A DNA stretch of 64,000 bases from Sphingomonadales bacterium. Lineage in GTDB: Bacteria > Pseudomonadota > Alphaproteobacteria > Sphingomonadales > Sphingomonadaceae. The translations under genes were made by a program, and so were the position numbers. Location of the stretch: contig JAIXOE010000028.1 in the NCBI GenBank assembly GCA_027486895.1, positions 25,437-89,436 on the forward strand, in the 5' to 3' direction. The notes below the pieces were generated by a model. The model was given only the letters and a program-made list of their open reading frames with translations, did not search any database and was not told the origin of the DNA. Each line of letters opens with the position of its first letter. The first letter of the stretch is position 1. Shown here piece by piece: positions 21,591 through 48,482 of the stretch.

Positions 21591-21666
21591 GGACGCTTAG
21601 CTCAGTTGGTAGAGCAGCTGACTCTTAATCAGCGGGTCGTGGGTTCGAACCCCTCAGCGTCTACCA
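21591..21666 (+). tRNA. tRNA-Lys (CTT), integration site
   Basis: 76 nt; TAGCTCAG D-arm start, anticodon stem GCTGA/TCAGC around CTCTTAA, TTCGAAC T-loop, encoded CCA. Confidence 0.96.
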
Positions 21667-21668
21667 TT
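21652..21668 (+). repeat. attL core (17-bp direct repeat)
   Basis: CCTCAGCGTCTACCATT, identical to 48466-48482. Confidence 0.92.
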
Positions 21669-21724
21669 CAAGTCATTTATCACTTTGTTTTCAAAAGAAT
21701 AAATGGTCTGTCCAAAAAACTGCG

Positions 21725-21745
21725 CCCACATTCGTTCCCACATTT
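21725..21745 (+). repeat. Putative integrase arm-type sites, left end
   Basis: CCCACA-N6-CCCACATTT (12-bp period), repeated at 48329-48349. Confidence 0.7.
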
Positions 21746-21814
21746 TGATTTGGACATACTGGGCGGTGCTGGGTCTCGATGGAACCGAACATCGGATGAC
21801 ATGCTGCTTGACTG

Positions 21815-22618
21815 TTAATTGCGAGACTCGCTCCCCGCCCGAATCCTGACCGTGCAACGCACCGGCTGCTTCGCGTTCGCAGCAGATTTTTGACAAGCCT
21901 CGATTGCGTCTCGATTATCGCGCAGCAAATCGGCTGCCCGCTCAAGCGCATTCAAAGCCTGAGGGCTTTCGGTCCGCATCAGGCGCGTGCCTGCATCCCA
22001 GCGCGACGATTCGCCGACCATCCTCGCCGCCATTCGCTCGGGCCAGTGCCAACTCTCCGGCACGGAACGGGCGATAGTTCCGGGAAGGAACGACCAAAGC
22101 AGGATGCCGCCAAGCATTCCGCCTCCGACTGCCTGAAACACCGTGCGGCGTTGGTCCGCGCGGGTGCGGGCGTGGGCGGTGACACCGCGCATTTCCTGTG
22201 TCGCTTGCCGAAGCTCATTATATGCGTCGTTGATCCGCGTTTGATCGCCGCGCCGGGCCGCGTCCGCTGCGGCTTCGATCCGCCTACCAAAGCTATCGGG
22301 CGTCACCTGCATGGCCGGGTGTTCCTCGATGCAATCGAGATTCTCCGCCATCTCTTCGAGCCGCTTTGTCATCTCAGTCAGAGTCGCGCCATAGTCAGGG
22401 ATAACGATGTCCGCTCGCTCGGCGGCAAGATGCTGGACCGCGCGCCGCATGAGGGCCAGTTCGCCTTCAAGCCGCGCGAACGCTTCGGCAGCAGGATCGC
22501 TTTCGACCTTGGCGAGCCTAGGTTTGGCCTTGCGCTTTGGTCTGGGCTTGGGCTTGGCCTCCGCTTCGGCCTCCTCCTCAATGTCCAGCGTCACTTCTTC
22601 GGTATCGGCATTATCCAT
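21815..22618 (-). CDS. DUF6118-like protein downstream of traA
   Basis: AFARLEGELALMRRAV..IPDYGATL and PESWHWPERMAA; typical position in sphingomonad elements (recalled, not searched). Confidence 0.7.
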   Translation of the reverse strand: MDNADTEEVTLDIEEEAEAEAKPKPRPKRKAKPRLAKVESDPAAEAFARLEGELALMRRAVQHLAAERADIVIPDYGATLTEMTKRLEEMAENLDCIEEHPAMQVTPDSFGRRIEAAADAARRGDQTRINDAYNELRQATQEMRGVTAHARTRADQRRTVFQAVGGGMLGGILLWSFLPGTIARSVPESWHWPERMAARMVGESSRWDAGTRLMRTESPQALNALERAADLLRDNRDAIEACQKSAANAKQPVRCTVRIRAGSESRN

Positions 22619-22628
22619 TTCACTTCTC

Positions 22629-46717: not shown

Positions 46718-46924
46718 ATGTCCGAACACGAAAGAATTATCCGCCTCAAGACCGTTTTGTCGCGAACCGGCCTCTCCCGCTCGACGATGTATCGCAAGAT
46801 CGCCGAAGGCACCTTCCCGTGTCAGGTCAGGATCAGTATTCACGGGGCGGGCTGGCGCGAGTCCGCCGTCAACCGCTGGATCGCCGATCCGGTCAGCTTC
46901 CGCAACGAAAGCGCCGTGTCATGA
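46718..46924 (+). CDS. AlpA family phage regulatory protein
   Basis: IIRLKTVLSRTGLSRSTMYRKIAEGTFP..WRES. Confidence 0.9.
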   Translation: MSEHERIIRLKTVLSRTGLSRSTMYRKIAEGTFPCQVRISIHGAGWRESAVNRWIADPVSFRNESAVS

Positions 46925-47115
46925 TTGCGCCGCTTCCTCCCGACCCGATATGCGTGAGGATAAACGACGCTGCTCGCATGATCGGCGTCGGTCGCACCAA
47001 GCTGTATGAGCTGATTGCGACAAACGAGATTGAAGTCGTTAAGCTCGGCAAATCGACGCGCGTTACAACAGCAAGTCTGCGCGCGCTAGTCACGCGGCTT
47101 CGCGCATTGGAGTAG
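46921..47115 (+). CDS. Excisionase-like helix-turn-helix protein
   Basis: VRINDAARMIGVGRTKLYELI; convergent with the integrase. Confidence 0.8.
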   Translation: MIAPLPPDPICVRINDAARMIGVGRTKLYELIATNEIEVVKLGKSTRVTTASLRALVTRLRALE

Positions 47116-48274
47116 CTTCGACTGCCTCTGCGCGGGCCGTGTCGAGATGCGCAGCCCAACGCGCCATCAAGTCGCGGCGCTTTTCGAAAAAGTCGGTGCG
47201 GCGATACGCGGCTTCGACCCGGTTGGGCAGCTTGTGCGCCAGTGCCTTTTCGACGACCTCCTTCGGAAAGGCAGTAGTTTCCGCCGCCCAATCGGTGAAT
47301 GCAGAACGAAAGCCGTGCACGGTCACGCCCGTTATGCCGTCATCTCGCAGCAGCTTGGTCATAGTCATGTCGCTGATCGGCTTTTTACCGCTATTCGAAA
47401 ACACAAGCCCATCGTCGCTAGTTCGCTCATTCCATCGCCTTCGAAGCAACGCCACGACGGGCAATGAGAGCGGCACGATATGTGTCTCGCGGGCCTTCAT
47501 GCGCTCGCCGGGTATCGTCCAGATGGCTTTGTCGAGGTCGAACTCGCTCCACACGGCAAAGCGCGTCTCGTTCGATCTGACTGCGTTATAGATGGTGAAG
47601 CGCAAGGCGTCGCGTCCTGTCGTCGCTGCGGCGGCCGCTAGCCTCGTCATCAGCGCTGGAACGTCAGCATAGGGCATGGCGATGAAGTGCCCGGCCTTTT
47701 CGGTTTGCCGGGGTAGCCCCTTCCGCACGGAGCGCAGAGAAACCTCTCCGGAAATCCATCCTTTGATGTGCGCGAAGTCCAACACCACGCCAATCCGCTG
47801 AAGGATGCGCCGCGCAGTTTCTGGAATTTCTAGCCAGATAGGTGAGAGCACTTCGACGACACACGCGCTGTCCACCTTATCGACCGGCTTTCTACCGATG
47901 CGGGGAAACACATGCCGTTCGAAACCAGATAGCCAGCGAGAATGATGGCCGTCCTTCCATCCATCTCCCAAGGTTTCGTGGCAAGCCCGTGTCGCGGTCT
48001 CGAAGCTGGGTATGATTCTTCGAGCCTTTTGGCGTTCTGCGACGGGGTCAAAGCCATCGCGTACCCGGCGACGCAATTCTGCCGCTGCCATTCGCGCATC
48101 TGCAAGTGGCACGTCATACGCTGACCCCATGCCGTAGTCGCGGCGTTGCCCGTTGAGTTGCATTCTCAAGACCCAAGTGCGCGAACCGCTCGGTTTGACA
48201 ACCAAGCACAGACCCCTGCCATCGACATGGCGACCGGGCTTCGCATTCTTCACTTTTAAAACTGTTAACGCCAT
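47090..48274 (-). CDS. int: P4-like tyrosine integrase
   Basis: N-terminal arm-binding domain (DGRGLCLVVKPSGSRTW), catalytic R (VRSNE), HGFR, LAH and AAYRR. Start moved to ATG 48274. Confidence 0.95.
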   Translation of the reverse strand: MALTVLKVKNAKPGRHVDGRGLCLVVKPSGSRTWVLRMQLNGQRRDYGMGSAYDVPLADARMAAAELRRRVRDGFDPVAERQKARRIIPSFETATRACHETLGDGWKDGHHSRWLSGFERHVFPRIGRKPVDKVDSACVVEVLSPIWLEIPETARRILQRIGVVLDFAHIKGWISGEVSLRSVRKGLPRQTEKAGHFIAMPYADVPALMTRLAAAAATTGRDALRFTIYNAVRSNETRFAVWSEFDLDKAIWTIPGERMKARETHIVPLSLPVVALLRRRWNERTSDDGLVFSNSGKKPISDMTMTKLLRDDGITGVTVHGFRSAFTDWAAETTAFPKEVVEKALAHKLPNRVEAAYRRTDFFEKRRDLMARWAAHLDTARAEAVEATPMREAA

Positions 48275-48328
48275 AAAGTTCGATTCCCTGACAGGAAACC
48301 ATACCGCCAAAACCGGGGGTATTTCGGT

Positions 48329-48349
48329 CCCACAATCTTTCCCACATTT
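48329..48349 (+). repeat. Putative integrase arm-type sites, right end
   Basis: CCCACA-N6-CCCACATTT, matching 21725-21745. Confidence 0.7.
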
Positions 48350-48465
48350 CAGCGAGAATTCAGGCAAATCAGGGCGACCGACCACGAACGACTTACAACA
48401 TAAATCATTGTTTTTACAGTGTGCTTAGAGACGCCTTGAAATCGCTTGACACGAAAGTTATAGCG

Positions 48466-48482
48466 CCTCAGCGTCTACCATT
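48466..48482 (+). repeat. attR core (17-bp direct repeat)
   Basis: CCTCAGCGTCTACCATT, a copy of the tRNA-Lys 3' end. Confidence 0.92.

Follow-up and report, generated by a model that had tools for sequence, protein, structure and literature searches.

A 64,000-nt stretch of a Sphingomonadales bacterium genome (assembly GCA_027486895.1, contig JAIXOE010000028.1, positions 25,437 to 89,436; hereafter the window) carries at positions 21652-48482 what we read, with a probability of about 0.82, as an intact canonical integrative mobilizable element (IME) inserted at the 3' end of a tRNA-Lys(CTT) gene. The element combines an integration and excision module, a mobilization module with its own relaxase and origin of transfer (oriT), and metal-resistance genes. 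The comparisons below make it likely that the IME is intact and that it has moved, by site-specific integration, in the very recent past.

The ends of the element are marked by two copies of a 17-bp direct repeat, CCTCAGCGTCTACCATT. The left copy (attL core, 21652-21668, plus strand) consists of the last 15 nt of the tRNA-Lys(CTT) gene identified by ARAGORN (21591-21666, plus strand) followed by TT; the left border is an intact tRNA gene, adjoining rodA. The right copy (attR core, 48466-48482, plus strand) is the point at which similarity to copies of the element in other hosts ends exactly. The repeats are spaced 26,814 bp apart, which gives an element of 26,831 bp with both copies included. 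By chance, 64 kb should contain about 0.12 exact 17-mer pairs; across the full 2.87-Mb assembly, the repeat, and even its 13-nt core, occurs at these two sites only. An earlier note on this DNA had placed the element at 21652-48482, with 17-bp att repeats at tRNA-Lys; both statements proved exact, the repeats being identical and the pair genome-unique.

We searched 60 relatives for an empty site, using as query 400 bp from the left of the element fused to 400 bp from its right. In one congener (G015, contig C66, locus L003) the match crosses the junction: the tRNA-Lys gene, joined at the attL core, runs straight into the counterpart of window positions 48466-48656, with 88% identity to the window in the left flank and 90% in the right. 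Because G015 holds this joined site, the element is an insertion whose ends lie exactly at the repeat. A close integrase (at least 66% identity) was found in only about 5 of the 60 congeners. With an empty site in G015 and so few close integrases, the element is not fixed at this site in all relatives, the outcome that the earlier note had named as evidence against its reading.

Copies of the element in other hosts, located by exact-protein look-up in public assemblies, provide strong evidence of recent movement. The identical 394-aa integrase of the element was indexed in 28 blocks of these assemblies, from which the 23 longest contigs were read; one of its small mobilization proteins (TraD-domain protein 2) was indexed in exact form in 55 blocks, from which 23 contigs were read. 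Six loci (L112, ENA ERZ27315062; L113, JGI 3300001605; L114, JGI 3300071567; L115, SRR24091627; L118, DRR783852; L119, DRR851310) match the window at 99.4-99.96% identity, over as much as 11.4 kb, from position 48482 into the element; on the outer side of that base all six lack similarity to the window. In addition to the context seen in the window (L116, L117), their flanks represent four different gene contexts. Where such flanks have counterparts in the genome studied here, these lie at other places and reach only 72-85% identity. The exact TraD-domain protein 2 led to the remainder of the ENA contig (L125); the whole element there again measures about 26.8 kb, at 99.6% identity. On the complete chromosome GCA_942492985.1 (L124), the rodA-side flanks are 77% identical as against 98.8% for the backbone; at L126, flanks are 87% identical and the backbone 97%. 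Short Logan contigs from DRR851308-10 and SRR22388116 join the opposite, DUF6118 end of the element to tRNA-Lys, so that insertion took place at tRNA-Lys in those hosts too.

In at least five different chromosomal contexts, with flanks only 72-87% identical to this genome, the near-identical element therefore stops precisely at the 17-bp core. Judged from these alignments, identity of 99.4-99.96% across hosts that are 13-28% divergent, cut off at the core, is strong evidence for very recent integrase-mediated horizontal transfer. Such spread among hosts is not proof that the copy in this strain excises. Several independent assemblies (contigs L110, L111 and L120-L123) all break inside or just past tRNA-Lys at attL; such breaks are consistent with a branch in the assembly graph, as a mixture of hosts or of occupied and empty sites would create, and are not evidence by themselves.

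The genes expected to direct integration and excision lie next to attR. The tyrosine integrase (394 aa, 47090-48274, minus strand) is of the P4/CP4-57 type and has Arm-DNA-bind_3 (PF13356), Phage_int_M (PF22022) and Phage_integrase (PF00589) matches. By its domain content it is a P4-like tyrosine recombinase in which the arm-binding, core-binding and catalytic domains are all there. It carries R233, K260, H320-x-x-R323, H347 and Y357, a complete R-K-H-x-x-R-H-Y set, with the residues assigned by motif position and not by structure alignment; a search of solved structures with the integrase gave matches to the N-terminal domains only. On the opposite strand, a 64-aa HTH_17 excisionase-family protein (46921-47115, plus strand; PF12728) is a candidate Xis that scores 29.9 bits against TIGR01764 'excise' (cut-off 28.8), and the 3' end of its gene overlaps the 3' end of int. 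Adjacent to it is a 68-aa AlpA-family regulator (46718-46924, plus strand; PF05930), a candidate excision activator or recombination directionality factor (RDF).

The motif CCCACA-N6-CCCACA has exactly two matches in the window, both on the plus strand and both just inside the repeats. One is in the P' arm (CCCACATTCGTTCCCACA, 21725-21742) and is a putative arm-type integrase site; the other is in the P arm, between the int start and the core (CCCACAATCTTTCCCACA, 48329-48346). Of 78 related loci, 61 retain the pair upstream of int. As an argument the repeats are marginal if taken by their number, and we base it on their position and on their conservation within the family. From this anatomy, the integrase would recombine a core of about 15-17 bp with the same sequence as the tRNA 3' end, and the copy that the element brings would restore the tRNA gene. 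The integrase would be directed there by binding of its N-terminal arm-binding domain to the CCCACA-N6-CCCACA repeats of the two arms. Excision to a circle would need the HTH_17 (Xis-family) protein, AlpA, or both.

At the other end of the element, next to the tRNA, lies the mobilization module. Its central gene encodes a 961-aa relaxase-helicase, TraA (22629-25514, minus strand), with MobA_MobL (PF03389, 248 bits) and AAA_30 (208 bits) domains. TraA scores 940 bits against TIGR02768 (Ti-type TraA, cut-off 590) and 262 bits against the MobQ model NF041496 (cut-off 200), and its motifs include Tyr25, H125-x-D127, H137-x-H139 and a Walker A motif at 369-376. With a catalytic Tyr, an HxDx..HxH metal motif and a fused SF1B helicase, it is on sequence grounds a MOBQ, Ti-type relaxase. 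The last gene of the block encodes a 267-aa DUF6118 protein (21815-22618, minus strand; PF19613, 90 bits); both plasmid NC_008036 of Sphingopyxis alaskensis and 11 family loci likewise have this gene behind traA. Divergent from traA are genes for two small proteins with a TraD domain (PF06412): TraD-domain protein 1 (101 aa, 25687-25992, plus strand; 69.6 bits), a relaxosome accessory candidate that is called as 101 aa in other assemblies too, and TraD-domain protein 2 (75 aa, 26015-26242, plus strand; 78.7 bits). They are followed by a leading-region gene for a single-stranded DNA-binding (SSB)-like protein (26274-26792, minus strand; PF00436), called as 111 aa elsewhere.

Between traA and traD1 is the candidate oriT (25543-25572, plus strand), an inverted repeat, CGTCG-GCA-CGACG, followed by TATAAGCGCGCCCT, in the manner of a MOBQ-type nic region. 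The string ACGTCGG(C/A)ACGACGTATAAGCGCGCCCT is kept in 25 of 25 readable related TraA/TraD intergenic regions, including that of plasmid NC_008036, while the flanks vary; its one variable base falls in the hairpin loop. The published MOBQ oriT consensus is NWACCNNTAAGTGCGCCCTYNN, with core TAAGTGCGCCCTY (PMC3832669), and the window sequence TAAGCGCGCCCTC matches this core at 12 of 13 positions. Family knowledge and the conservation of the site suggest that TraA would nick the excised circle at this MOBQ-type oriT (...TATAAGCG/CGCCCT...), assisted by both small TraD-like proteins and possibly by DUF6118. The neighbouring SSB-like gene may serve the incoming strand.

A Pfam scan of all element ORFs (open reading frames; 21652-48482, in which unannotated gaps are shorter than 700 bp) revealed no type IV secretion system (T4SS) or coupling-protein gene. 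Having its own relaxase and oriT and neither a T4SS nor a coupling protein, the element is an IME and not an integrative and conjugative element (ICE). We rejected ICE identity because no T4SS lies inside the element; the F-type tra genes of this genome are on other contigs (C9, C36 and C42). Under the definitions of Guedon et al. 2017 (PMC5704250) it counts as a canonical IME, since it brings a canonical relaxase of its own and lacks both a coupling protein and mating-pair genes; according to the same authors no Proteobacteria IME then described was of the canonical type. The earlier call of an integrative mobilizable element thus agrees with the gene content (integration/excision module, own relaxase and oriT, no T4SS or coupling protein). 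The apparently intact int, xis-like gene, alpA, traA and oriT that it listed were all recovered within the coordinates given there, the integrase with its catalytic residues, as were the CCCACA-N6-CCCACA sites inside both ends.

Because the IME encodes neither function, it would have to pass its TraA-bound single strand to a conjugative element in the same cell, which would supply the coupling protein and the mating channel. A search of its own genome for VirB4 (PF03135) gave no match. The resulting idea that the genome holds no helper was rejected, as this was a false negative: F-type TraC belongs to PF11130. Weak PF02534 matches were resolved by NCBIfam and Pfam to an F-type TraD and an F-type TraC, namely an 805-aa TraD coupling protein on contig C42 (TIGR02759, 363 bits) and TraC on contig C36 (PF11130, 459 bits). 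With pNL1 Tra proteins as tblastn queries against the genome, we found TraL, TraE, TraK and TraB on C9; DsbC, TraC, TrbI, TraW, TraU, TrbC, TraN, TraF and TraH on C36; and TraH and TraG on C42, together with a TrwC-type MOBF relaxase. These conjugation loci (L106-L108; C9:12242-15224, C36:1-11422 and C42:5379-24808) lie on contigs whose ends continue one another in gene order. By gene content, a pNL1-like F-type conjugative element is co-resident in the genome, and its T4SS, TraD coupling protein and MOBF relaxase make it the candidate helper. That this particular element mobilizes the IME is possible but, in our view, rather doubtful.

Several observations weigh against the reading of an intact, mobile IME or against parts of it. 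In the window alone, the number of arm repeats is marginal: with one mismatch allowed, 0.30 matches are expected and 6 of 100 shuffles reach 2. TraA of Ti plasmids is paired with a TraG coupling protein of its own, and the element has no such gene. F-type TraC was not found in three Sphingorhabdus metagenome-assembled genomes (MAGs) that carry sister elements, and MAGs often lack plasmids. Movement between species might conceivably have taken a different route, the integrase inserting the element only after its arrival. Finally, exact-pattern scans of JGI metagenome contigs found neither the attP junction, ...GAAAGTTATAGCG-CCTCAGCGTCTACCATT-CAAGTCATTTATC..., nor the same-species attB, ...GGTTCGAACC-CCTCAGCGTCTACCATT-TTTCTCAATGG...; both are weak negatives, since exact matches were demanded and assemblies drop minor forms.

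The missing attP and attB junctions would also suit an island that was recently acquired and is now immobile, whether through silencing, the lack of a compatible helper or subtle defects. Decay does occur in the family: G066 and G018, two of the roughly five congeners with a close integrase, carry in-frame stops in that gene. The backbone genes of the element are nevertheless full length and retain their catalytic residues, its repeats are exact, and the integrase protein is identical, with DNA 99.4-99.96% identical, in at least five host contexts, so that the transfers would be too recent for decay. We regard an immobile island as improbable. The two congener genes (G066:C14:6728-7900, L099, and G018:C142:15063-16217, L100) are 69% and 66% identical to the integrase gene and have one in-frame stop each, TGA and TAG respectively; they are probably decaying copies.

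Another route of spread has been considered in the form of transformation, a gene transfer agent or transduction, acting on the excised circle or on flanking DNA, with TraA and oriT as the relic of an integrated mobilizable plasmid. The traA-traD-DUF6118 block does share 72-76% nucleotide identity with small sphingomonad plasmids, and the element lacks its own coupling protein. A relic would, however, be hard to reconcile with the clear constraint on the mobilization block and on oriT, which is conserved at 25 of 25 loci while its flanks vary, and similarity stops exactly at the att core, where homologous recombination between flanks would leave a ragged edge. We consider this explanation very unlikely. 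When the whole element was searched against plasmids, none proved to carry it and only separate modules matched, at 70-81% identity; we rejected on this basis the candidate of an integrated known plasmid.

A further reading is that the element is part of a larger composite, moving in cis with a neighbour by accretion at tRNA-Lys, rather than an independent IME. In ENA ERZ27315062 and JGI 3300002856 the element does stand in tandem behind an island with a 446-aa integrase, and other congener contigs have perfect 48-57 bp matches to the tRNA-Lys 3' part. The window itself contains no such partner: its left border is the intact tRNA by rodA, its right border matches the G015 empty site, and the element brings an integrase, RDF candidates, a relaxase and an oriT of its own. 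The chance that it belongs to a composite seems to us slight, and a composite or tandem island was rejected for this window, both borders being clean. The tandem arrangement was observed at L125:1-5655 (ENA ERZ27315062 contig k141_1313968) and at L127. The island in front of the element encodes the 446-aa integrase, a 233-aa ORF, an HTH_17 protein and an 818-aa PriCT_2/DUF3987 primase-like protein, and it ends in a partial tRNA-Lys of about 50 bp. Together with the 48-57 bp matches in congeners, this suggests from sequence that the PriCT_2/DUF3987 type of island is common at tRNA-Lys.

The intact IME of the window belongs to a family that can be followed across the Sphingomonadales. A scan of one genome per species gave 336 loci with integrase relatives, the best 80 of which (73-97% identity) were examined. 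Almost all of these 80 are labelled Sphingomonadales (Sphingorhabdus, Novosphingobium, Erythrobacter, Sphingobium, Sphingomonas, Sphingopyxis and others). Two MAGs with labels from outside the order, L040 (Tabrizicola) and L051 (Lentimicrobiaceae), have integrases that are 75-80% identical, with xis and alpA; they represent either mis-binned contigs or spread beyond Sphingomonadales. Within 10 kb of int, the best 80 loci contain HTH_17 in 75 cases and AlpA, next to int, in 72; TraD genes were found at 24-29 loci, TraA at 16 and DUF6118 at 11. The order is always the same: int, xis and alpA in the opposite orientation, a variable slot, traD2 and traD1 oriented as xis, traA and DUF6118 oriented as int, and then the tRNA. 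Three compact members (L023, L026 and L029) of 7.3-10.4 kb are bounded by 15-16-bp repeats, which in two of the three correspond to a tRNA-Met 3' end. Their P' arm is homologous to that of the window (...CAAGTCATTTATC...TTCCCACA...) and has one perfect and one degenerate copy of the repeat. The far-end core of the 9.8-kb member, L029:19584-19600, has no tRNA gene before it, which suggests a tandem array or a secondary site.

When the regions upstream of int are aligned, a conserved P arm (TTACAG...GAAAGTTATAGCG) is followed by one of at least five discrete cores and then by unrelated host DNA. The cores (L015-L094) are located about 190-210 bp upstream of int and each ends in CCA. The Lys-type core, CCTCAGCGTCTACCA, is shared by the window, L015, L016 and L075; the Met-type core is CCTCCTCCGCTACCA; the other types are TCGTAGGGGTCACCA, CTCTTCTGGGCACCA, TGTCGGGTGCGCCA and one further type. 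An identified tRNA gene was matched for the Lys- and Met-type cores only. This alignment places the 17-bp repeat of the window exactly at the crossover core of the family, and it indicates that the family switched tRNA target several times by exchanging the core behind a conserved P arm. On comparison of the sequences, the window shares every family feature: the gene order, the P arm with CCCACA repeats, the oriT and a core at a tRNA 3' end. Our literature search for this Sphingomonadales IME family found no description of it; a 2025 preprint on Sphingopyxis granuli ICEs concerns different, T4SS-bearing elements.

No component of the element is new in itself: P4-like integrases with AlpA at tRNA genes, Ti-type TraA, TraD and oriT, and cop and czc genes are all well known. 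Like the Bacteroides IMEs NBU1 and Tn4555, it pairs a tyrosine integrase and att sites with its own relaxase and oriT, lacks coupling-protein and mating-pair genes and relies on a co-resident conjugative element; it differs from them in being alphaproteobacterial, in having a MOBQ Ti-type TraA relaxase-helicase rather than a small MobP or MobV relaxase, in targeting a tRNA 3' end and in carrying metal cargo. Plasmid NC_008036 of Sphingopyxis alaskensis RB2256, typed as MOBQ and mobilizable, has the same DUF6118-traA/traD-traD block at 76% nucleotide identity, with a TraA of 961 aa and an identical oriT string. There the block resides on a replicating plasmid, whereas here it is chromosomal and joined to integrase, Xis and AlpA, and no replication gene was found in the element. 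The DNA transfer and replication (Dtr) region of Ti plasmids (TraA, TraC, TraD, oriT and TraG) has in common with the element a TIGR02768-type TraA and small divergent TraD genes with oriT between; lacking the TraG coupling protein and the Trb T4SS, the element is not self-transmissible. With P4/CP4-57 tRNA islands it shares an Arm-DNA-bind_3 integrase, an AlpA regulator and insertion at a tRNA 3' end with a short direct repeat, but it differs in having int at the end away from the tRNA, an additional HTH_17 Xis-family gene, and a conjugative mobilization module in place of phage or satellite functions. SGI1-type IMEs of Enterobacteria are likewise chromosomal resistance islands with an integrase and Xis that are mobilized by a helper. 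Unlike the element described here, SGI1 has an atypical relaxase, some T4SS subunit genes, a dependence on IncA/C and antibiotic resistance.

What our analysis adds is modest: a family-level picture that includes core swapping, and natural evidence of ongoing spread. The element is a concrete, bounded vehicle for the current spread of predicted Cu and Zn/Co/Cd resistance among environmental sphingomonads, a 26.8-kb unit that keeps above 99% identity across hosts with 13-28% divergence between their own genes. Alphaproteobacteria would thereby contain a large family of canonical IMEs, whose att cores are easy to compare, and this family offers a convenient system for studying how tyrosine integrases are retargeted to new tRNAs and how a MOBQ relaxosome recruits a foreign coupling protein. 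It fills a poorly catalogued group and does not overturn current understanding. Our most inclusive proposal is more tentative, and we rate it at clearly less than even odds: an order-wide family of minimal IMEs (about 7-10 kb of int, xis, alpA, traD, traD, oriT, traA and DUF6118) may have reached at least five tRNA targets by core exchange, carrying a 20-kb Cu/Zn/Co/Cd cassette between species and hijacking a pNL1-type coupling protein despite a Ti-type MOBQ relaxosome.

The cargo of the element, about 20 kb, occupies the variable slot of the family, between alpA and traD. Nearest the mobilization module is an efflux module that unites resistance-nodulation-division (RND) and cation diffusion facilitator (CDF) systems (26862-33899, minus strand). 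It encodes a CzcD-like CDF transporter, a DUF305 protein, CzcA, CzcB and CzcC, with Pfam matches to Cation_efflux/ZT_dimer, DUF305, ACR_tran (1087 bits), HlyD_D23 and OEP. The next block (33966-36258; Pfam) contains a His-rich 128-aa ORF, a 264-aa protein with a C-terminal DUF3703 domain, a short CDF transporter (208 aa) and the first, divergent MerR regulator (35851-36258, plus strand); it is 90-98% identical in L015 and L124, where it stands beside other cargo. A DUF3768 protein (36483-36935, minus strand; PF12599) is followed by the second MerR regulator (37613-38002, minus strand), which is divergent from a glutaredoxin-MauE fusion (38019-38849, plus strand), both identified by Pfam. The remaining cargo is a copper module (39164-46357; Pfam), 85-90% identical in L016. 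Its minus strand encodes DUF411, small ORFs, PepSY_TM, CopB, the multicopper oxidase CopA, an extracytoplasmic function (ECF) sigma factor, a Metal_resist sensor and an 87-aa ORF, and CopC and CopD are on the plus strand. The sensor beside the ECF sigma factor is of the CnrX/ZraP type.

The Pfam scores of the Czc and Cop determinants (CzcCBA and CDF; CopA with CopB, CopC and CopD) are far above the cut-offs. The genes behind the earlier description of the cargo as Cu and Zn/Co/Cd handling, with two MerR and one ECF regulatory systems, were thus found, and the metal specificities are predictions from family names. Copper would be handled by CopABCD, DUF411 and PepSY under the ECF sigma factor with its CnrX-like sensor, and divalent cations would be exported by CzcCBA and the two CDF transporters with MerR-type regulators.

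Cargo at a related locus has a different composition. In a Sphingorhabdus MAG (L015:5569-12922), the integrase is 97% identical and the core is the same, but about 7 kb of different cargo is present; after it comes a DUF3768/MerR/CDF block that is about 90% identical to window positions 35038-37598. This locus shows module shuffling in the variable slot.

Two further features lie outside the element. A tRNA-Leu(CAG) gene is located at window positions 59004-59090, 10.5 kb downstream of it. Elsewhere in the same genome, beyond the window, contig C33 contains a second metal-gene region (93540-141151), with one czcA that is 84% identical to that of the element, another czcA at 52% and a copA at 55%. 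A second integrase, with 41-44% identity, is found in this region at C33:139985-141151, adjoining a lytic transglycosylase-like match.

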